Shown here: piece after piece, positions 31,245-51,658 of the stretch
Position numbering within the stretch: position 1 is the stretch's first letter
Layout: every line of letters begins with the position of its first letter
DNA from: Bacteroidota bacterium
GTDB lineage: Bacteria; Bacteroidota; Rhodothermia; Balneolales; HLUCCA01
Assembly (NCBI GenBank): GCA_020832235.1
Contig: JAFIEZ010000003.1
Location: forward strand, 464,264-528,263
Reading direction: 5' to 3'
DNA: 64,000 nt
The notes under the pieces: generated by a model
What the model saw: only the letters and a program-made list of their open reading frames with translations
Told to the model about the DNA's origin: nothing
Databases searched by the model: none
Program-made: the position numbers and the translations under genes

Positions 31245-31595
31245 ATGCCACGTTCTACAAATCATGTGGCTTCCCGTCGCCGTCGGAAAAAGATTTTAAA
31301 TCTTGCGAAAGGTTACTGGGGCGCTCGTAGTAAAGTTTATACTGTTGCGAAAAACACGGTCGAAAAAGGTCTTCTGTACCAATATCGTGACCGACGTAAT
31401 CGTAAACGTGAATTCAGAAAACTCTGGATCATACGTATAAACGCTGCCGCACGTCTCAATGGAGTATCCTACTCGCAGCTGATGGGGGCCATGAAGTCCA
31501 AAAACATGGAAATCAACCGCAAGGTTCTGGCCGACCTCGCTGTTCGTGAACCGGAAGCTTTTACAGCTATCGTTCAGGCAGCAACCGGCAAATAA
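31245..31595 (+). CDS. rplT: 50S ribosomal protein L20
   Basis: 116 aa, [18 protein letters not shown]...RINAAAR. Confidence 0.95.
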
Positions 31596-42647: not shown

Positions 42648-44006
42648 TCAGTGCAATAATGTATGTAATTTATTTTCTTGTTTTGTTGATTCCGTTTCGA
42701 ACCAGTTCAAGATTTCACCAATCTGATTGCTTTGACTTGATTTTGCCATTATTCCAGGTGAACCTTTTATTAGGTAACTGCTTTTAAGCTCATCGTGTAC
42801 AAGCACTTTAGCATCAGATACCATTTTTGCGGCCAACCGATAAGCTTCTCTAAACGGCATACCCTGTGAAACCAATTTATTGGCCTCATGTGTGGCAAAT
42901 ACTTCCGCCGTAAGACTCCGCTCACAAGCCTCAACATCCACATCAACCCCGCGCAACGCCCGCTCAACAGCCGTAGCAAGCTCCTCAGCCGCAAACACCG
43001 CATCCATCACCGCACGCTTGCTGACCTGCAAATCCCGGTGATAACCCGACGTCAAATTAGCCCCCACCGAAGAAAGCTCCGCTGAAATTCCCGAAAACCG
43101 ATGATACGTCGCTCTGATCAACTCCCAGGCATCCGGATTGCGTTTCTGAGGCATAATACTGCTCCCGCTCGTCTGATCTTCACTCAGGCGCAGATACCCA
43201 AAAGCAGGATTCACAAACAAAATAACATCCGCAGCCAGACGGTTAAACGTAAGAGCAGCATAACCTAAAGCATCCACCACTCGTTTTTCCAAAACGCCCC
43301 TACCCGGCTGAACCGCCGTCACAGGCCACTGCACTTCGCTGAAACCCATCAAGTCCGCCGCAAGACCCCGCTCCAAGCCAAAATAGGGAACACCGTATCC
43401 TGCAGCGCTCCCCAACGGAGACCTGTCCACTTCCCGATACACCCCCAACACAGAACGCATATCAGCCAGCATCAAATCTTGCCAACCGGCCGCCCACGCA
43501 TCAACGGAAGAAGGCATCGCCGGTTGTGTATGCGTCATTCCTGCAAAAAAAACACCCTCATATCGCTCACCAAGCTCGCCCATCACCTGAAATATCCGTA
43601 TCCACGAACCAACAAGCTCACGCATGCGGTGCTTTAGAAACAAACGCACATCCGTAGCAACCTGATCATTTCTGGACCTGCCGGTATGAATACGCTTCCC
43701 CGCCTCTCCACAATCCGCAATGAGGTGCCGCTCAACACAGGAATGTACATCTTCATCGTGTTCCTCCAATTGGAATTCACCCATTTCCCATGAGCGATAG
43801 TACCGTTTCAATGCCTGTGAAACGGCGTCGTATTCTTGCTGAGAATAAATTCCGGCTTGTTTCAGAATGGCTGCCTGCGCCAGATTGCCGAGTAAATCAT
43901 AGGTTATCAGATACTGATCGTAGCTACGGTCTTCCCGGGTTGTAAATCGGTCAAACCAGTCGCGATTAAGCTGCGATTTATCGTCCTTTTGCCAAATTTT
44001 ACTCAT
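42648..44006 (-). CDS. argH: argininosuccinate lyase
   Basis: 452 aa. TGRSRNDQV, MTHTQPA and GSSIMPQKRNPD motifs. Confidence 0.95.
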   Translation of the reverse strand: MSKIWQKDDKSQLNRDWFDRFTTREDRSYDQYLITYDLLGNLAQAAILKQAGIYSQQEYDAVSQALKRYYRSWEMGEFQLEEHDEDVHSCVERHLIADCGEAGKRIHTGRSRNDQVATDVRLFLKHRMRELVGSWIRIFQVMGELGERYEGVFFAGMTHTQPAMPSSVDAWAAGWQDLMLADMRSVLGVYREVDRSPLGSAAGYGVPYFGLERGLAADLMGFSEVQWPVTAVQPGRGVLEKRVVDALGYAALTFNRLAADVILFVNPAFGYLRLSEDQTSGSSIMPQKRNPDAWELIRATYHRFSGISAELSSVGANLTSGYHRDLQVSKRAVMDAVFAAEELATAVERALRGVDVDVEACERSLTAEVFATHEANKLVSQGMPFREAYRLAAKMVSDAKVLVHDELKSSYLIKGSPGIMAKSSQSNQIGEILNWFETESTKQENKLHTLLH

Positions 44007-44010
44007 ATCA

Positions 44011-45114
44011 TCATGCCTGATTTATTCGTTCGAAATACATTTTAATAATGGATTTGTATAAAGAGACACCCGCATTCAATTGGGAGATTTCAATATGCTC
44101 ATTGTGCTTATGTGATAACTCGCTATGACCGGGACCTATTTTAACAACAGGGATGTCCGACAAGAACACCCAGTCTGAGGCTGTAGGACTCCCAAAAAAG
44201 ACCTGTCCTGATGCATCGAGCGCGCATTGTGCAATTATCGATTGATCATCGGTTTGCGTGCTGACAAAACGGTCACTGATAACCTCGACTTCGCACCCAA
44301 TTGCTGATTGTATGGTATGAAGTATACGCTCATTAGGAATTTCCGGAATGGTTCTGATATCTAAAATTACATCGGTGCTCTCGGGCATTGCGTTGTTTAC
44401 AGTACCAGCCGAAATCTTCGTGGGCGTTATTTTAATATTTCCAATAAATGGATTTTGCTCTGAAAATTGTAGGTCCCGAAGTTTTTGCAGTACATCTGCC
44501 ATCTCATAGATAGCATTTTTGCCATACACGCGAGCAGCATGACCCGATTCACCTCTTGTAGTGAGACGCACAACGAGGAGTCCTTTTTGAGCAACACAGG
44601 GTGCTAAAGACGTGGGCTCACCAATAAGAGCCGCATCGGGTCTTGGAAGCCTTCCCTCGTCCATCAGGGTTCTCAGATAAGCCATACCGTTAAATTCCCC
44701 CGAAGTTTCCTCGCAGATTGTAAGTGCGAAGCTCACTTTTCCGGCATTGGGCTTCCAGCCTTCATGGGCAAGTTCAAGCAGAGATCGTAGCATTGCCGTT
44801 CCACATCCCTTTGCATCTGTTGTGCCCCTGCCCCAAATACACCCATCTCTTTCCTCCGGACTGAACGGATCGCCGTGGTGATTTGCAGATGGTGGTACAA
44901 CATCGGAGTGGGAATTTAATAGCAGCCACCGACCGGGTTTCCCAGAGTCTATACTGAAAATGATATTGTCACCATAGCGATCCGTGTGCAAGAGTTTGGT
45001 TTTGGAAACAGCCTCCTCCAGCCAGTCGACCAACTCCTGTTCATTCGTGCTCAGACTTGGGAAACGCACCAGGGCTTTAAGTAATTCTTTTGGATCTTCC
45101 TGTAATAAGTTCAT
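44011..45114 (-). CDS. argE: M20-family deacylase (ArgE-like by context)
   Basis: 367 aa. HSDVVP, GRGTTDAKG, CEETSG and GESGHAA motifs. Confidence 0.75.
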   Translation of the reverse strand: MNLLQEDPKELLKALVRFPSLSTNEQELVDWLEEAVSKTKLLHTDRYGDNIIFSIDSGKPGRWLLLNSHSDVVPPSANHHGDPFSPEERDGCIWGRGTTDAKGCGTAMLRSLLELAHEGWKPNAGKVSFALTICEETSGEFNGMAYLRTLMDEGRLPRPDAALIGEPTSLAPCVAQKGLLVVRLTTRGESGHAARVYGKNAIYEMADVLQKLRDLQFSEQNPFIGNIKITPTKISAGTVNNAMPESTDVILDIRTIPEIPNERILHTIQSAIGCEVEVISDRFVSTQTDDQSIIAQCALDASGQVFFGSPTASDWVFLSDIPVVKIGPGHSELSHKHNEHIEISQLNAGVSLYKSIIKMYFERINQA

Positions 45115-45115
45115 A

Positions 45116-45892
45116 TCACGAATGGATTAACAGTGTTCCACGATGTTTCTTGAGGCCGGTCGGATTGGTTAGCCTTACAGCTCCTATCCCGGAAGCTAAT
45201 GCTTGAAACCCGGTATGCAGCTTGGGTATCATGCCTTGGTTTATCCATCCCTCCTGAATGCCTTTATCTCGTAAATCGGATGTCATCCGCGCAATGGGTT
45301 CGCCGGTGTGCCCAAGAACGGCCTCAGGCTCCATTAACATAACGATTTCTGACGCATTTAAGGCTGAAGCAATAGCGATTGAGAACGTATCAGCGTTAAT
45401 GTTTAATGTTCCTTCGTTTGCTGACCATGTAAGGCAACCGATAACCGGAATGAATCCTGCGTTGAGCAGTACGTGTAACAACGTTGGATTAACATGGTCA
45501 ATTTCACCTACAAGCTGAAAATCTACTGGCTTTCCATCCATAAGCAGCGGTTCTCTTCGGAGTGCAGTCGTAAGCTCTCCATCCGTGCCATTGAGACCTA
45601 CAGCGGAGATACCCTGTTTTCTCAGTGCGCTTACCAGGTTATTGTTTACACTTCCACCAACAGTGTACCGAAGCACCTCAAGAGCCTCAGGTGTAGTAAC
45701 CCTCCTGCCCTGTACCTGTACCGATTGCTGTCCTAATTTAGCAGATAAAGCGTTTATCTGTTTACCGCCTCCATGCACAATGACAACAGGGCGCGTGTGT
45801 TGGATGCAATCATCTACAAAGGAAAATATATGCTCCAGCGCTTCAGGCTGATCGGTTAAGCTTCCGCTGATTTTTACAACGACAGGTCCCAT
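45116..45892 (-). CDS. argB: acetylglutamate kinase (short form)
   Basis: 258 aa. VVKISGS, IVHGGGKQI, and NINAD. Confidence 0.9.
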   Translation of the reverse strand: MGPVVVKISGSLTDQPEALEHIFSFVDDCIQHTRPVVIVHGGGKQINALSAKLGQQSVQVQGRRVTTPEALEVLRYTVGGSVNNNLVSALRKQGISAVGLNGTDGELTTALRREPLLMDGKPVDFQLVGEIDHVNPTLLHVLLNAGFIPVIGCLTWSANEGTLNINADTFSIAIASALNASEIVMLMEPEAVLGHTGEPIARMTSDLRDKGIQEGWINQGMIPKLHTGFQALASGIGAVRLTNPTGLKKHRGTLLIHS

Positions 45893-46905
45893 AATTGCAT
45901 TAGGATTGATTTTTGAACATGCAGGCGGTTTTCAGCTTCATCAATATGTCGAGCATTGGGACTATCCAGCACGTCATCGCTCACGACAACATTTCGTCGA
46001 ACCGGCAAACAATGCATGAAATAGGCTTCGTTTGTATATTGCATTTTATCAGCGTCCAATGTCCAGTACTGATATTTTTCTTTGCGTAAACGTGCTTCTT
46101 CGAGCGGATTTTGATACACAATTGGAGATGCCCATGATTTGGCATATACCACATCGGCGCCGGTAAGGGCAGACTGTTGATCGTGGTCGATAACAAGGTT
46201 GTTTCCGTAGGTTGCACATTGCTGTTTAAATCGGTCTATAAACTGTGTATCGGGCACCATTTCGGGTGGGCAAGCCAGAGTTACCTGTATGCCACTTCTG
46301 CTAGCCATATCCAACACCGATACAGGAACCGCCTGTGGTAGTGGTGAGGGATGGGGCGCCCAGGTTAGAACTAGTTTCTTATCAGGCAATGCGTTCTTGC
46401 CAAATAACTCGCGTATGGTCATCCAGTCGGCCATAGCCTGACAAGGGTGCTCCATGGCACTCTCCATGTTGATAACCGGTACCTCGGCATAATGGGCAAC
46501 GGATTTCATGAGGCGCTCAGTGTAATCGGCATCTTGGTCTTTTAGCGTTGAAAATGCTCGAACACCGATGGCATCACAGTACCTGGATAACACCTGTATG
46601 GCCTCTTTGAGATGTTCTGTTTTATTGCCATTCATAACGGCGCCAAATTCGGTCTCGAGTGTCCAGGAACCGGATCCGGGTGAAATTATGGATGAACCTG
46701 CACCTAAGTGAATTGCCGCAGCCTCAAATGATACTTTTGTTCGCAATGAAGGGTTGAAAAACAGCAGTCCGAGGACCTTCCCCTCTGCCTTTCGGCTTCG
46801 GTAGCGAAGTTTTTTTAACTCATCGGCCCGGTCTAATAAAGCCAGAAGGTTTTGATTTGACCAGTCGTTTAGACTTATGAAATGTTTATTTTGAGATGAC
46901 ATCAA
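45874..46905 (-). CDS. N-acyl-L-ornithine carbamoyltransferase (AOTCase/SOTCase class)
   Basis: NPSLRTK carbamoyl-phosphate motif and HCLPVRRN. The proline-rich TWAPHPSPLPQAVP loop is, as far as I recall, characteristic of acyl-ornithine rather than classical ornithine transcarbamylases. Confidence 0.8.
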   Translation of the reverse strand: MMSSQNKHFISLNDWSNQNLLALLDRADELKKLRYRSRKAEGKVLGLLFFNPSLRTKVSFEAAAIHLGAGSSIISPGSGSWTLETEFGAVMNGNKTEHLKEAIQVLSRYCDAIGVRAFSTLKDQDADYTERLMKSVAHYAEVPVINMESAMEHPCQAMADWMTIRELFGKNALPDKKLVLTWAPHPSPLPQAVPVSVLDMASRSGIQVTLACPPEMVPDTQFIDRFKQQCATYGNNLVIDHDQQSALTGADVVYAKSWASPIVYQNPLEEARLRKEKYQYWTLDADKMQYTNEAYFMHCLPVRRNVVVSDDVLDSPNARHIDEAENRLHVQKSILMQLWDLSL

Positions 46906-48061
46906 TCAGTTCTTTTGCAAACTCCTCAATGGTTTGCGTTGGTGTTATAATGGGGGGCATGATGCGCATGACATCTGCTACATCAGATGTGCCGGTAATC
47001 CAGCCTCTGTGGAAAAGCTCGCGCACAACGGTTTTCGCTTCTACTGGCAATTTGAGCCCGATAAGGCATCCCCTTCCACGAATTTCAATAGGGGTATCTT
47101 TTAGTGCCTCAAGGAGTGTGTTAAACACCAGGGGAGCATGTGCCATGTGGTTCTTAACATCGATTTCCTCCAGCGTAGCTTCACAGGCCGCGCTAGCCAG
47201 CATTCCTCCAGCAAATGTTGACCCCAGATCCCCGTTACTCAGCTGACCGGCGATTCGGTCGGGCATCAAAACTGCACCAATAGGGAACCCGGCCGCAAGG
47301 CTTTTGGCCAAGGTGATAATGTCGGGTTTCATATTCACATGTTCACAAAACGAGAAGGTGCCGGTTCGTCCTACGCCGGTCTGTATTTCATCGAAGATGA
47401 GTAGCACGCCGTATTCGTCGCATATTGCACGAACATCTTGGTAATAGGCATCTTCAGCCATATTACACCCATTTATGCTCTGAATAGGTTCTATAATAAA
47501 TCCGGCAACATCGGTATTCATACTAAGAAATTCCCTTAGGGCAGATGCATTTCCAAACGGAACAAAGGAAACATCCGGCATCGCGAAACGATATGGTAGG
47601 CGCAGCTTCTCGCTATGTGTTACAGAAAGGGATGCAAGCGTTCTGCCATGCCAACCGCCTATCGTTGAAACTATTCGAGTTTTCCCGGTTATTTTCCAGG
47701 CCAGTTTGATGGCGTTTTCGTTGGCTTCCGTTCCAGAATTGCAGAAAAAAACTTTATCGAATCCTTCGGGGGCCATTTCAATGAGTTTCCGGGCTGCTTT
47801 TCCACGCGATGGATGATAAATTACATTGGAATAAAACATGAGCTGTTTAGATTGCTCATGAATTGCGTCAATCACACGCTGAGGGGAATGGCCTAGTATA
47901 GAAACGCAATGGCCACCATATAAATCGGTATATTTTTTCCCGTCGATATCGAACAAATAGATGCCTTCTCCGTGAGTAAATACAACGGGATATCGCGCAT
48001 AGGTAGCCGCTTCGTACTGGTCTTCTAAAGCTTTCCAGTCTATGTTTATATTATTTGTCAT
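46886..48061 (-). CDS. argD: acetyl(succinyl)ornithine aminotransferase
   Basis: 391 aa, class-III aminotransferase. NSGTEANE, FDEIQTG and TLAKSLA (PLP Lys) motifs. Confidence 0.9.
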   Translation of the reverse strand: MTNNINIDWKALEDQYEAATYARYPVVFTHGEGIYLFDIDGKKYTDLYGGHCVSILGHSPQRVIDAIHEQSKQLMFYSNVIYHPSRGKAARKLIEMAPEGFDKVFFCNSGTEANENAIKLAWKITGKTRIVSTIGGWHGRTLASLSVTHSEKLRLPYRFAMPDVSFVPFGNASALREFLSMNTDVAGFIIEPIQSINGCNMAEDAYYQDVRAICDEYGVLLIFDEIQTGVGRTGTFSFCEHVNMKPDIITLAKSLAAGFPIGAVLMPDRIAGQLSNGDLGSTFAGGMLASAACEATLEEIDVKNHMAHAPLVFNTLLEALKDTPIEIRGRGCLIGLKLPVEAKTVVRELFHRGWITGTSDVADVMRIMPPIITPTQTIEEFAKELIDVISK

Positions 48062-48084
48062 ACAACCTACATTATCTTTATGTA

Positions 48085-49107
48085 CTACAATATGATACCT
48101 GGATACATGAGCCCGGTTTCTTCAGGTAAATCGAACATCAAATTCAGGTTTTGAACCATCTGTCCTGCTGCACCTTTCCCCATGTTATCAATGGCCACTC
48201 CGATGCTGAATATATGTTTATCCTGCTGCCATCCGATGTCTGTAAATGCTGTTCCAACTACCGGCTTGAGCTCTGGCAAAGAAGAACGAAGTCGCACCAG
48301 CGGCGAATTATAATAAACACTTTCAAACGACTCTGTAAGGTCGTGAGTTTTCTTTAGTTCACCGGAAATATTCATCCAGATTCCGCGCACAAATGGACCA
48401 GATACAGGGGTAAAATGTATATCGGCTTCTACGCCAGCGATGCGCTGGGTATGGCGACTAACCTCACCGAGATGCTGATGTTTGAATACTTTGTAGGCTT
48501 TCACGTTTCCAAATCGATTCGAAAAGTGCGTTGTTTCTGAAGGCTTGGCACCCGACCCCGATGAACCTGTCATTCCGGTCACAAAATACCGATTGGAGAG
48601 TTCCGATAGCATCAACGGCAGTATTCCCATTTGAAGTGCCGTAGCAAAACAACCTGGATTGGCTACGTAGTCGGCATTGCGTATTTGCGCGCGATTATAC
48701 TCGGTGAGCCCGTAGGTAAATCGATTTAGTAATTGTGGATGAGGATGCTTACTTCCGTACCAGGTCAGGTAGTCATCTGGGTTCGGAAGACGGAAATCTG
48801 AACCGATATCGATTATCTTACCCTTATACCCTGCTTGGATGAGTTCATGCGCTGCATCTGCAGATTTTCCGTGAGGGAGAGCCAAAATCACAGCGTCGGA
48901 TGCATCGGCGGCGAGTTTTGATAAGGGCAGTATCGTCTGATGAAGGATTTCAGCGAAAGCCGGGTATATTTCATCGACGCTCTTCCCTGCCGAATCGTGA
49001 CCATAGAGATGGTGGATTTCAAATATAGGGTGCTGGAGCAGATATCTTATGGTTTCCATACCGGTATATCCGGAAGCACCTGCAATCGAGAGTTTAATTT
49101 TATTCAT
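48085..49107 (-). CDS. argC: N-acetyl-gamma-glutamyl-phosphate reductase
   Basis: 340 aa. GASGYTG, and ANPGCFAT with the catalytic Cys. Confidence 0.9.
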   Translation of the reverse strand: MNKIKLSIAGASGYTGMETIRYLLQHPIFEIHHLYGHDSAGKSVDEIYPAFAEILHQTILPLSKLAADASDAVILALPHGKSADAAHELIQAGYKGKIIDIGSDFRLPNPDDYLTWYGSKHPHPQLLNRFTYGLTEYNRAQIRNADYVANPGCFATALQMGILPLMLSELSNRYFVTGMTGSSGSGAKPSETTHFSNRFGNVKAYKVFKHQHLGEVSRHTQRIAGVEADIHFTPVSGPFVRGIWMNISGELKKTHDLTESFESVYYNSPLVRLRSSLPELKPVVGTAFTDIGWQQDKHIFSIGVAIDNMGKGAAGQMVQNLNLMFDLPEETGLMYPGIIL

Positions 49108-49109
49108 GG

Positions 49110-50189
49110 TTATACTCTAAAATCGTCGTTCGCAGTTGAAGGGAGTGTTAATGCCGACTCTGCGACCCACTCGCCAAGCTTTTGTGGATCACTCACGGCA
49201 TTGACCGCACGAATACCCATGGTATTCTGAATAAACTGAATGCCTACCAGGTTATCCGTTACCGGACCGGTAATGATGGTGATTCCCCTGCTGTATCGCT
49301 TTCTGAAAAAATGGTCGGCTGCCCAGCATCCCATAAAGTCCTGCGCGGCTACAACATGTACTGAGGTAAATTTTTGAATTTCTTTGTCCATAAGCAGACT
49401 GTCTACACCGTATGCTCCGATAATACCATCTCCAAATTCCAAGACAATTAAATCGGGATTCTGCTTGTTCAGGTGCTTGATGAGTCCTTTGGCCATTGGC
49501 AGAATATTTTTCCCGGTAGTTGATACCAGTCCAGCTTCTGAGAAATGCGTACAGGCTATGGCACCCTGGTCCATCATAGAACGCACATCCCGCATCAACG
49601 ATGCACCGGTTAGTTTTGCGGCGGCAACTTTGTACCCTTTGGCCGACAATTGTTTAACAATCTGAGTTGCGGCCATGGTTTTACCTACGTTCATGCAGGT
49701 ACCGGTTACGGCAATCAAAGGTACACTATTCGTTAGTTCATATTCCCATTCAATAGCAAAATCTTGAATACAAGCGTGCTTCATGATGTCATCATCTTTT
49801 ATCATCACAGCACCAACAACTTCCGCCCGCATTGCGGGACCGAAATCAGGATGTGGTGATTGACAGAATCCAATGATTCCACCCATATTGAGTATATGAA
49901 GTACATCTCCAGCTTTAATAGCACGTGGTACAACACCGCTATAACCGCGCAAGGCCTGTCGCTCACCGAGAGCACCTACAACGATATCTCCTTTTTTATA
50001 GGCAATAAAGTTGCCTTCTGCATTCTCAATTTTGTTATAGGTTTCTTTATCATCCAGCAGCTTAACCGCCACAACGTACCCTTCCTGGGCCACTATGCTT
50101 TTGGAAACTGGTAATTTCCCCTGCAGTTTAACGGCTCCTGAACTGGATGCGATAATATCGGCGGTTATGGTCTCAAATTCTGTAGTCAT
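49110..50189 (-). CDS. uncharacterised 359-aa protein with GT-x3-VGKT P-loop-like motif, embedded in the arg operon
   Basis: Motif IAVTGTCMNVGKTMAATQIVKQLSAKGYKVAAAKLTG, then DLIVLEFGDG. Overlaps the argG stop by 4 nt and lies 2 nt from the argC start. Confidence 0.75.
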   Translation of the reverse strand: MTTEFETITADIIASSSGAVKLQGKLPVSKSIVAQEGYVVAVKLLDDKETYNKIENAEGNFIAYKKGDIVVGALGERQALRGYSGVVPRAIKAGDVLHILNMGGIIGFCQSPHPDFGPAMRAEVVGAVMIKDDDIMKHACIQDFAIEWEYELTNSVPLIAVTGTCMNVGKTMAATQIVKQLSAKGYKVAAAKLTGASLMRDVRSMMDQGAIACTHFSEAGLVSTTGKNILPMAKGLIKHLNKQNPDLIVLEFGDGIIGAYGVDSLLMDKEIQKFTSVHVVAAQDFMGCWAADHFFRKRYSRGITIITGPVTDNLVGIQFIQNTMGIRAVNAVSDPQKLGEWVAESALTLPSTANDDFRV

Positions 50190-51385
50190 GATAGCTTATT
50201 CTGATGTGCAATTTTTGAAGTTAGGCCGTATAGTTTAGAGAAAGCGCGGGCTTCTTCGCCGGTCCATCCGGTGCTTTCTTCTCCATATTTTGCGAAGCTG
50301 GCATTCATAAGGCTATTTGGAGATGAAGCACCTAGTGGAAACAGGTTTCCATGACCAATGTATAGTCTGGAATCTCCCTTAACCAGCTGCTGGGAACTGT
50401 CAAAGAATGCTTCAATGTCGCGCATTACAGGGTCATAATAATGCCCTTCATGCAGGAGCATCCCATACATGTCGGCTTGTTGATCTTTTAGCTGTCGTTG
50501 CCACTTGGTTAACACTAGTTTCTCTAGTTCTTTGTGGGCAAGATATACAATGGTGGCGACTGGAGCTTCAAATCCAATGCGGCCCTTGATGCCAATAATG
50601 GTGTCACCCAGGTGCATTCCCCTGCCAACACCATGTTTTCTGCCACATTCTAGCAAATACTGAAGTAGTTCCTTGTTCTTCATCTTTTCGCCATTGACGG
50701 CAAATGGCAACCCATTGTGGAACGATATCGTGAGCTCCTCAGCCTGCTCTGTAAACTGCGATGGCGATTTAAGATGAGGAAATGCATCAAACGGTAGCGA
50801 CTGATCAGAAGTTGTGGTTTCTTTACCACCAATGGTTGTGCCCCAAATACCGTCATTAATCGAATACTGTGTTGTTTTCTCCTCTACATGAAACCCCTTG
50901 CTTTGAAGATACTTCGTTGTATCGGTTCGCGTTAACTCTTTGTCTCGAATAGGTGTAATAATTTCAGCACCAGGAATTAACGTACGTAATGCCGCATCAA
51001 ATCGAACCTGATCATTACCGGCTCCGGTGGATCCATGAGCAACAGCTTCTGCACCAATACGTCGGGCATATTCAGCAATCTGTTCTGCCTGAATGAAACG
51101 CTCTGCTCCAACCGATAGCGGATATGTTCTGTCGCGAAGAACGTTCCCTTTAATTAAATTTGAGATTATTCTATCGTAGAGCATGTCAAAGGCCGGAACA
51201 CACTCAAAATGCGCTGCCCCCAACTCTTTTGCCCGCTTATCAACAAGCTGTATTTGCTCATCATCCATCCCAAGACAATCAACCAATACGGCATGAATTT
51301 CAGCCTGGTAGTTTTCAATTAAGTACGGAATACAAAAACTGGTGTCTAGTCCGCCACTATAGGCAAGTACAATCTTTTTAGTCAT
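50186..51385 (-). CDS. argG: argininosuccinate synthase
   Basis: 399 aa. LAYSGGLDTS, AHGSTGAGNDQVRF. Confidence 0.95.
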   Translation of the reverse strand: MTKKIVLAYSGGLDTSFCIPYLIENYQAEIHAVLVDCLGMDDEQIQLVDKRAKELGAAHFECVPAFDMLYDRIISNLIKGNVLRDRTYPLSVGAERFIQAEQIAEYARRIGAEAVAHGSTGAGNDQVRFDAALRTLIPGAEIITPIRDKELTRTDTTKYLQSKGFHVEEKTTQYSINDGIWGTTIGGKETTTSDQSLPFDAFPHLKSPSQFTEQAEELTISFHNGLPFAVNGEKMKNKELLQYLLECGRKHGVGRGMHLGDTIIGIKGRIGFEAPVATIVYLAHKELEKLVLTKWQRQLKDQQADMYGMLLHEGHYYDPVMRDIEAFFDSSQQLVKGDSRLYIGHGNLFPLGASSPNSLMNASFAKYGEESTGWTGEEARAFSKLYGLTSKIAHQNKLS

Positions 51386-51399
51386 CTGTAAATATCCCT

Positions 51400-51437
51400 A
51401 AAATAAAAAAGGACAGAACCTTTTGAAGATTCTGCCC
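51400..51437 (-). terminator. attenuator terminator in the argG leader
   Basis: On the minus strand, GGGCAGAATC-ttcaaaa-GGTTCTGTCC is followed by TTTTTTATTTT. It ends 14 nt before the argG ATG. Confidence 0.75.
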
Positions 51438-51472
51438 TTTCGATAAAGTTACATTCCACGATGCAAACAACA

Positions 51473-51553
51473 TTAACTTTCGGACATTATCTTCTCAAAG
51501 GAGATTTCCCTGCGAAGACGGCGCCTGATTATAATATTAATTGTTTGGATCAT
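51473..51553 (-). CDS. arginine-codon-rich leader peptide MIQTINIIIRRRLRREISFEKIMSES
   Basis: 26 codons from ATG to TAA. Codons 10-15 are AGG CGC CGT CTT CGC AGG. The 3' end of the ORF can pair with the 5' arm of the downstream terminator. Confidence 0.65.
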   Translation of the reverse strand: MIQTINIIIRRRLRREISFEKIMSES

Positions 51554-51658
51554 GCGTAGTAGATACCAACTATTTCAACAGATTGCAACCAGTTTTTGTA
51601 TTTTTTTGATAAAGAATTCAAGCAGCTCTGGCTGATCTCCAAATTAACTGGCTAAATA

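Follow-up and report, generated by a model that had tools for sequence, protein, structure and literature searches.

In the textbook view, arginine biosynthesis in bacteria is controlled by ArgR/AhrC repression at ARG boxes, in contrast to the trp, his, leu, thr, ilv and phe operons, which are controlled by attenuation. The subject of the present analysis is the leader of argG, the first gene of an arginine operon in a 64,000-nucleotide (nt) stretch of DNA, hereinafter the window, from a Bacteroidota bacterium of the order Balneolales (GenBank assembly GCA_020832235.1, contig JAFIEZ010000003.1, positions 464,264 to 528,263). An earlier note, made from the letters of this DNA alone, had proposed an arginine attenuator at this place. 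The comparative analysis described here indicates that the leader probably is a ribosome-mediated (leader-peptide) transcription attenuator that senses charged tRNA-Arg and controls read-through into the operon (argG-...-argH). As under ArgR/AhrC control, the arg genes would be off when arginine is plentiful; however, ArgR binds DNA at the promoter in response to free arginine, whereas the argG leader is proposed to be an RNA switch read by the ribosome via the charging of tRNA-Arg.

The anatomy of the leader resembles that of the classical attenuators (trpL, hisL, leuL, thrL, ilvL/ivbL and pheL), in which a short open reading frame (ORF) with a cluster of codons for the end product is followed by an intrinsic terminator located directly ahead of the first biosynthetic gene. 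The stop codon of the ORF adjoins segment 2, and the RNA can adopt alternative helices denoted 1:2, 2:3 and 3:4. The argG leader differs from them in that its ORF has no Shine-Dalgarno sequence and should, by prediction, open the transcript at its 5' end, and from the Rfam families Trp_leader, His_leader, Leu_leader, Thr_leader and Bacteroid-trp (Bacteroidetes) in that it would sense arginine and shares no sequence with any of them. In fungi, the arginine attenuator peptide (AAP) encoded by the upstream ORF of arg-2/CPA1 is a conserved nascent peptide that senses free arginine, stalls the ribosome at termination and blocks scanning. Common to the fungal and the proposed bacterial devices is an upstream ORF that makes an arginine-pathway gene responsive to arginine; the AAP, however, is eukaryotic and involves neither a run of Arg codons nor a terminator nor alternative helices.

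Leader-peptide attenuation has been reported for the ilv, his, trp and aromatic operons of Flavobacterium psychrophilum (PMC9723704). In mycobacteria, polycysteine leaderless short ORFs function as cis attenuators ahead of an operon for the metabolism of that amino acid (bioRxiv 10.1101/834739). The argG leader shares with these a short ORF at the predicted 5' end of the transcript, enrichment for the codons of one amino acid and a matching operon; it belongs to another phylum and involves another amino acid, has a canonical intrinsic terminator and antiterminator, and its leaderless start is predicted from promoter spacing. Slowing of the ribosome at the Arg codons of an upstream ORF, with altered folding or accessibility of the downstream mRNA, has been described for orf34 (speFL) upstream of speF in Salmonella (PMC6386406) and for rbfL in Staphylococcus aureus (PMC13009471). 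These precedents show that Arg codons can serve as arginine sensors in bacteria. Unlike the argG leader, however, both systems use two Arg codons, control polyamine synthesis or a biofilm regulator rather than arginine biosynthesis, and act via Rho, RNase G or occlusion of the ribosome-binding site rather than via a 1:2/2:3/3:4 switch with an intrinsic terminator.

No description of an attenuator or leader peptide for arginine biosynthesis was found in the full-text literature searched, which does not cover most subscription journals, so that an earlier description is possible. Comparison with Rfam 15 at gathering thresholds yielded no matches in 16 related loci, in agreement with the view of the earlier note that there is no standard annotated Arg leader family. 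In a permissive search of the window region (E up to 10), the best match within 51401..51506 was DapZ, which at 21.7 bits (E = 0.45) falls short of its gathering score of 56; this and the snoRNA matches were rejected as sub-threshold noise over the terminator. The concept is a textbook one, but for the arginine version, the likely leaderless start and the spread across a lineage the literature searched holds no description.

Anatomy of the argG leader

The intergenic gap between a queG-like gene (plus strand, from 51659) and the ATG of argG (51385, minus strand) is 273 nt long, as had been noted earlier, and contains all the elements of the putative switch (Table 1). The leader ORF, the sequence and coordinates of which were reproduced, consists of the codons ATG ATC CAA ACA ATT AAT ATT ATA ATC AGG CGC CGT CTT CGC AGG GAA ATC TCC TTT GAG AAG ATA ATG TCC GAA AGT TAA. 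Among the 813 ATG ORFs of 10 to 60 amino acids (aa) in the six frames of the window, it is the only one with five Arg codons in six; a second Arg-rich small ORF (31432..31337, minus strand) was rejected as spurious because it is located within rplT, in antisense orientation. The Arg cluster begins and ends with AGG (51526..51524 and 51511..51509, minus strand), and both codons are unchanged in the closest clade. Of the Arg codons in the genes of the operon, AGG is the least used (13 of 136), and the terminal AGG codons may sharpen sensitivity through a minor tRNA-Arg.

Table 1. Features of the argG leader and the arginine operon in the window, with leader peptides and other elements of related and distant loci
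Feature	Sequence	Position	Strand	Basis or remark
Promoter-like -35 hexamer	TTGCAA	51588..51583	-	Prediction; conserved pair arrangement
Promoter-like -10 hexamer	TATCTA	51565..51560	-	17 nt after -35, 6 nt before the leader ATG (51553)
Leader ORF	MIQTINIIIRRRLRREISFEKIMSES	51553..51473	-	26 codons and TAA; ORF listing and sequence reading
Regulatory codon cluster	AGG CGC CGT CTT CGC AGG (R R R L R R)	51526..51509	-	Arg in 5 of 6 codons
Segment 1, 5' arm of anti-antiterminator	GGCGCCGUCUUC	51525..51514	-	Inside the Arg codons, pairs with segment 2; minimum-energy structures
Segment 2	GAAGAUAAUGUCC	51494..51482	-	Pairs with segment 1 or with segment 3 (antiterminator)
Segment 3, terminator 5' arm	GAAAGGGCAGAAUCUU	51441..51426	-	Plus C at 51425, a terminator loop base used in antiterminator pairing
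Segment 4, terminator 3' arm	AAGGUUCUGUCCUUUU	51422..51407	-	Terminator scan: 16 pairs, loop of 3
U tract	TTTTTTATTTT	51410..51400	-	Predicted premature termination site; ends 14 nt before the argG ATG
Arginine operon		42648..51385	-	Eight tightly packed genes; ORFs and translations, ArgG homologues
argG		51385..50186	-	399 aa; first gene of the operon
Gene for 359-aa protein		50189..49110	-	Between argG and argC; overlaps both neighbours by a few bases
argH		44006..42648	-	Last gene of the operon
Leader peptide, L004	MIQTIMISLRRRLRRETCRDEIVSES			
Leader peptide, L001	MIVTRYVSVINRRRLRRKNCC			
Leader peptide, L006	MQIFVNPFTIRRRLRRESCG			
Leader peptide, L002	MQRNTACISQTRRRLESRMGQYRILSDRA			
Leader peptide, L091	MNNITVQFPRPNIRRRPSPGKRSCGGYVL			
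Leader peptide, L092	MTYNLCNDSRRRRFRRRLERDLCKDCV			
Leader peptide, L097	MINQHTINIRISNRRRRFRLRLWVGLCEDCV			
Leader peptide, L093	MKIVELHNNRIDVRRRPRRVVNRKAVP			
Leader peptide, L096	MRITFNNKRRVYRRSIRALGLALS			
Element of low-GC Bacteroidota-type loci	CGNCGNCCNTAAGGG	L022 776-790, L025 783-797, L032 755-769, L034 722-736, L054 784-798, L075 772-786		
40-codon ORF upstream of arg operon	MSNILTHTKQFAFHAPITSGVYAVGYDVFTFSRPRRRPVC-stop	L038 556-678, L044 554-676, L074 555-677		RRR cluster near the C terminus

From the Arg codons onward, mutually exclusive helices can form. Within segment 1, the GTCTTC that the earlier note had recognized inside the Arg codons (51519..51514) pairs with GAAGAT (51494..51489) through five Watson-Crick pairs and one G-U pair. 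Segment 2 pairs with the part of segment 3 that extends from 51437 to 51425 at 11 of 13 positions (10 Watson-Crick pairs, one G-U pair and two mismatches; RNAduplex energy of -11.6 kcal/mol), exactly as proposed. The terminator formed by segments 3 and 4 is also present at the expected place before argG, with its T run at the predicted distance from the argG ATG; its size, however, had been underestimated, the hairpin (51441..51407) comprising 16 pairs rather than 10. The 191-nt region that includes these elements folds with an energy of -56.3 kcal/mol (z = -4.4 compared to 200 dinucleotide shuffles), and its minimum-energy structure consists of the 1:2 hairpin and the terminator. When the window RNA is folded in truncated form as if untranslated, 9 of 10 segment-2 bases are paired with positions 29-39 of the lead.

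In the minimum-energy folds of the window and most of its relatives, the beginning of the leader ORF, that is, the AUG and the codons next to it, is base-paired with the spacer that immediately follows the stop codon (in the window, 51549..51553 with ~51459..51463 and 51542..51547 with ~51464..51469, minus strand), so that the whole ORF forms one long imperfect hairpin. This hairpin could limit translation of the leader to the first, co-transcriptional ribosome.

The promoter-like hexamers stand close to the leader ATG. Of 19 loci, 14 have a pair of the form TTGnnn-17/18 nt-TAnnn[AT] that stops 5-8 nt short of the leader ATG, and in the ten closest loci the gap between the -10-like site and the ATG is constant at 5-6 nt. 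No Shine-Dalgarno sequence precedes the leader ATG in the window sequence. Given this spacing and the lack of a Shine-Dalgarno sequence, the leader ORF is predicted to be translated from a leaderless or nearly leaderless transcript. A promoter returned by a generic scan (TTGAAA-18-CATGAT) was rejected because it overlaps the leader ATG, and the conserved TTGCAA-17-TATCTA pair was preferred.

Conservation and covariation in related loci

Relatives of the window locus were gathered by similarity of the ArgG protein alone (60-85% identity), regardless of the leader, from a genome scan with ArgG (three loci, L001-L003) and twelve exact-protein look-ups; with the window included and duplicate places removed, these represent 16 distinct Balneolales-type lineages. 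In all 16, an ATG ORF of 20-31 codons is located between the promoter-like site and a hairpin with a T run, upstream of argG, and in 15 of the 16 this ORF contains at least two adjacent Arg codons (peptides in Table 1), so that conservation of the small ORF and of its Arg run, to which the earlier note had tied its proposal, is indeed observed. The distance from the terminator to argG is ~5-25 nt in most Balneolales-type loci, with an extra spacer before the annotated argG start of ~230 nt in L092 (~1765-2000) and ~90 nt in L097 (~1415-1500). The L092 locus is that of the isolate Balneolales bacterium ANBcel1 (GCA_029688905.1).

The codons that specify the Arg run differ between lineages: AGG CGC CGT..CGC AGG in the clade of the window, CGT CGT CGC in L091, CGC CGT CGC CGT TTT CGC CGT CGC in L092, CGC CGC CGC CCA CGT AGG in L093, CGT CGC CGA CGT in L097 and CGA CGA CGA..CGA CGT in the distant locus L012. 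It is therefore the amino acid that is conserved rather than the nucleotides, and in the leader alignment the Arg cluster alone is conserved across lineages in the stretch from the ATG to segment 2. Arg accounts for 104 of the 475 residues (21.9%) of the 18 non-redundant leaders, compared to 4.7% in the operon proteins, the former value being partly ascertained because the three most distant leaders were chosen for Arg-richness. As a background, the 352 kb of fetched loci (705 kb with both strands counted) contain roughly one small ORF with at least four Arg in six codons per 15 kb of strand; such ORFs are equally frequent on the two strands and lie mainly in high-GC contigs.

Compensatory changes in relatives, another expectation of the earlier note, were found in both the antiterminator and the terminator. 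In an alignment of 14 leaders that spans the region from the Arg run through the T run (alignment A2), the 2:3 helix is 96.4% paired over 167 cells, with 4 of 12 pairs changed on both sides, compared to 41-58% paired when the helix is slid by 1-3 columns; the 3:4 helix is 92.3% paired, with four compensatory pairs, and the T run follows the hairpin in every relative. Three columns of segment 3 (113, 120 and 121) covary with their partners in both segment 2 and segment 4. In column 113, a change of G to A is accompanied by C to U changes in both column 64 (segment 2) and column 141 (segment 4); in column 120, the A to G change in L093 is accompanied by U to C in columns 57 and 134; and in column 121, L091 has C in place of U, column 56 has changed from A to G, and column 133 remains G. 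With no structure supplied, the RNAalifold consensus is the terminator; with segment 4 cut off, it is the 2:3 helix, which spans a variable spacer of ~50 nt and comprises 11 pairs, four of them compensatory. That the terminator/antiterminator switch is real can be considered nearly certain, and the three-way covariation makes it a clean test case for the prediction of alternative structures. The 1:2 helix occurs in the fold of every sequence, with segment 1 at positions that vary between lineages.

Ribosome geometry and proposed mechanism

To mimic the ribosome, the RNAs of 19 loci were masked up to a point 14 nt past the first base of the cluster's last Arg codon and cut before segment 4; when these are folded, the 5' arm of the terminator pairs with the upstream segment 2 in all 19, whereas in unmasked folds most of segment 2 is paired with upstream parts of the ORF. 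Counted from the first base of that codon, segment 2 begins 18 nt downstream in the window according to the fold (17 nt if the boundary is set at 51494) and 16-33 nt downstream in relatives. Relative to the end of segment 2, the start of the stop codon is at +7 nt in the window and at -16 to +18 nt across the loci; in L001, L006 and L007, the stop codon lies directly before segment 2, and a ribosome terminating there would still cover the segment. The claim, made originally for the window, that segment 2 would be left free by a ribosome stalled on the Arg run and covered by one that has reached the stop codon agrees with the folds and distances of all 19 loci, and the layout is of the trp/his type.

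The argG leader combines an ORF with a cluster of end-product codons, an intrinsic terminator before the first biosynthetic gene, an antiterminator that shares the 5' arm of the terminator, and appropriate spacing. In the window, the minimum-energy structure includes the 1:2 anti-antiterminator, the 5' arm of which contains the Arg codons; in every relative, segment 2 pairs upstream within the ORF. The mechanism outlined below is supported by this anatomy and by its conservation. From the ORF, the Arg cluster, the alternative helices, the covariation of 2:3 and 3:4 and the identity of the operon, which sequence and comparison establish, we infer where transcription starts, that the ORF is translated, that the ribosome stalls, that there is a response to arginine and that the polymerase pauses.

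Transcription would begin at or just before the leader AUG, as suggested by the conserved -35/-10-like pair. Segments 1 and 2 would then emerge and could form the hairpin that holds the Arg codons, and a ribosome on the 26-codon ORF would melt this hairpin. When Arg-tRNA is plentiful, the ribosome would reach the UAA (51475..51473) and cover segment 2, the 16-bp 3:4 terminator would form, and the polymerase would stop in the U tract, yielding a transcript of ~150 nt. When Arg-tRNA is scarce, the ribosome would stall on the five Arg codons and cover segment 1; segment 2 would stay free because its start is 17-18 nt downstream of where the last Arg codon begins, and would pair with segment 3 as the latter emerges, so that no terminator would form and the eight arginine genes would be transcribed. 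If the leader were not translated at all, both 1:2 and 3:4 would be expected to form, resulting in termination.

Alternative explanations

Several observations weigh against sensing of tRNA-Arg charging by a translating ribosome or weaken parts of the evidence for it. The closest clade shows no nucleotide change in the string CAGGCGCCG, as might also be expected of an RNA motif, and for this reason an RNA or DNA motif was considered. The leader of L094 (ArgG 67% identical; locus 1328-1420), MQINTLHTNLVKGSAFVRSNPGEGCVRYLE, has just two scattered Arg codons, and yet this locus retains the promoter-like site, an ORF at the matching place, segments 2 and 3 and the terminator, so that the RNA switch can persist without the Arg run; this may reflect decay of the sensor or an assembly error, or it may be a sign that the switch works without the run. 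The leaders of L008 and L090 contain RR and only one or two more Arg. Taken alone, the 2:3 duplex of the window, with its two mismatches, is unexceptional, being equalled by 12% of mononucleotide shuffles, and its support is accordingly taken from the relatives: in the other 13 loci of A2, 0-3% of shuffles are as good in 10, 7% in L008 and L097 and ~50% in L091. The best 2:3 duplex is no better than shuffles in L012, L067, L091, L095 and L096; the terminal hairpins of L095, L096 and L019 were assigned by hand, in view of enclosing helices. The shuffle control of pair counts does not amount to a probability, and independent substitution events are few. Finally, the pairing partner of segment 2 in L008, L092 and L097 is formed by codons that precede the Arg run, and because segment 1 shifts between lineages, the 1:2 helix lies outside the covariation counts of the alignment.

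Some of these observations would fit an alternative under which the switch is real but is flipped by a trans-acting factor or a small ligand that binds the leader RNA (as in the case of PyrR, TRAP or riboswitch-like elements), with no sensing by the ORF and its Arg codons. Such a factor or ligand would account for the invariance of CAGGCGCCG and of the GGGAAA loop in the closest clade, for the complete RNA switch of L094 and for the lack of a Shine-Dalgarno sequence ahead of the leader ATG. Beyond the closest clade, however, the nucleotides under the Arg run are wholly different and still encode Arg in frame, and the ORF ends next to segment 2. Since nothing else is conserved across lineages between the ATG and segment 2, there is no candidate aptamer or protein-binding site, and no riboswitch, T-box or protein-binding leader of Rfam 15 matches the region even at E up to 10. 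This alternative, albeit the best of those considered, appears improbable.

Less probable still is that the translated leader senses free arginine through its nascent peptide in the exit tunnel, in the manner of the fungal AAP, TnaC or SpeFL. The peptide is Arg-rich, arrest peptides that contain Arg are known (Salmonella orf34/speF; PMC6386406), and the arg leaders of distant Bacteroidota-type loci (..RRP-stop, ..RPRRRP..; see below) look more like conserved peptides. Among the Balneolales-type loci, however, the peptide is not conserved beyond the Arg cluster, whereas an arrest peptide needs a conserved sequence. Furthermore, the direction would be wrong: stalling at the Arg run under high arginine would free segment 2 and turn the biosynthetic operon on. 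The layout fits instead the starvation-sensing design of trp and his.

The least likely explanation, and a highly improbable one, is a constitutive or leaky terminator (or a stabilising 5' structure) with control at the promoter only, for instance by an ArgR-type repressor as in the classical account of arginine biosynthesis, next to a coincidentally Arg-rich ORF: an ARG-box-like palindrome (TGAATTCTTTATCA, with TGATAAAGCTTATCA in L006) does lie upstream of the -35 hexamer, but coincidence would not recur, with different codons, as adjacent Arg codons in 15 of 16 ArgG-anchored lineages; the background is about one small ORF with at least four Arg in six codons per 15 kb, and a plain terminator needs no covarying alternative partner for its 5' arm. 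A chance origin of the Arg run was rejected on the same ground of recurrence across lineages. Promoter control by ArgR could nevertheless coexist with attenuation, so that the two are not mutually exclusive, and control at the promoter level besides the proposed attenuation is possible. The imperfect palindrome in question (51620..51607, minus strand) is followed by an A-rich stretch and resembles half an ARG box or an UP element; its counterpart in L006 is at the matching place, ~55 nt upstream of the leader ATG. Where control by ArgR would call for paired 18-bp ARG boxes that overlap the promoter, this single weak palindrome, located upstream of the -35 hexamer, was seen by eye, with no search for an ArgR gene or with a motif model.

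Arginine-rich candidate leaders beyond Balneolales

A metagenome scan with the ArgG alignment yielded 80 distant loci (ArgG 46-52% identical), which were used as an outgroup; because the scan patterns correspond to universal ArgG motifs, distant loci were returned rather than Balneolales. Three of these (L012, L019 and L067; ArgG 49% identical to that of the window) combine an ORF with an Arg run and a terminator, in sequences unrelated to the window: L012 encodes MTRNAHSFFRLRRRVRRLSKRTYGSAARALA with CGA codons and has a 12-bp terminator, L019 encodes MTRRLSHIAPTTRRRARRVRRLHTS.. and has a perfect 12-bp antiterminator (-22.8 kcal/mol), and L067 encodes ..NSRRSRRQF.., followed by a terminator.

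Other distant loci have Arg-containing elements of different kinds. In low-GC Bacteroidota-type loci, an invariant CGNCGNCCNTAAGGG followed by ..TAGGTG(A/T)GTCC is found ~700 nt upstream of argG, directly before a ~205-aa gene which in turn precedes argG. It reads ..(F/A)(P/R)RRP-stop, with no in-frame ATG ahead in three of the six loci and no obvious intrinsic terminator after it, and may be a coding leader or an RNA motif. In L025, L034 and L054, there is a separate upstream ORF with an Arg run at the stop codon or one codon before it (MKLPKNKIQFVIPGLPERFRRR-stop and similar). A third arrangement is the 40-codon ORF upstream of the arg operon in L038, L044 and L074; the near-identity of its peptide in L044 and L074, despite many nucleotide differences, suggests a translated, conserved peptide, and the ORF may be a different, peptide-dependent arginine leader.

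A broader proposition can be put forward tentatively, as one that we find plausible but would not yet call probable: that arginine biosynthesis across Balneolales and related Rhodothermota-like bacteria is governed by an Arg-codon attenuator with a leaderless leader ORF, the missing 'arginine member' of the classical set, and that the other Bacteroidota leaders (..RRP-stop and the 40-aa ..RPRRRP..) are divergent solutions, which perhaps replace ArgR. If the attenuator is what it appears to be, arginine synthesis too has come under ribosome-sensed control, in a lineage of the Bacteroidota-Balneolota-Rhodothermota group that has received little study; the leader would then be a compact (~150 nt) natural sensor of tRNA-Arg charging and a likely case of a leader peptide translated from a leaderless mRNA outside Actinobacteria. 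In practice, a small ORF and a terminator ahead of argG can serve as an annotation rule, and the aligned leaders as the seed of a new RNA family.

The arginine operon and its uncharacterised gene

The genes of the operon follow the order argG, a gene for a 359-aa P-loop-like protein, argC, argD, argF', argB, argE and argH, and the relatives have the same order of arg genes, as labelled by Pfam. ArgG of the window is 100% identical to a protein from a 'Bacteroidetes bacterium' metagenome-assembled genome, and the named near relatives are Balneolales.

The 359-aa protein has no above-threshold match in Pfam or NCBIfam and no relative in PDB; only weak P-loop matches (CbiA, DUF1611_C, MobB and BioD) were detected, at residues ~156-200. 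Speculatively, it may be an arginine-pathway enzyme, for example one that fills the missing N-acetylglutamate synthase step, and if the attenuator is real, its gene is an uncharacterised one co-regulated with the arginine pathway. The gene is kept at the position between argG and argC in nearly all Balneolales-type arg operons (355-361 aa); L095 and L096 are without a counterpart, and in L012 a 353-aa ORF directly follows argG.

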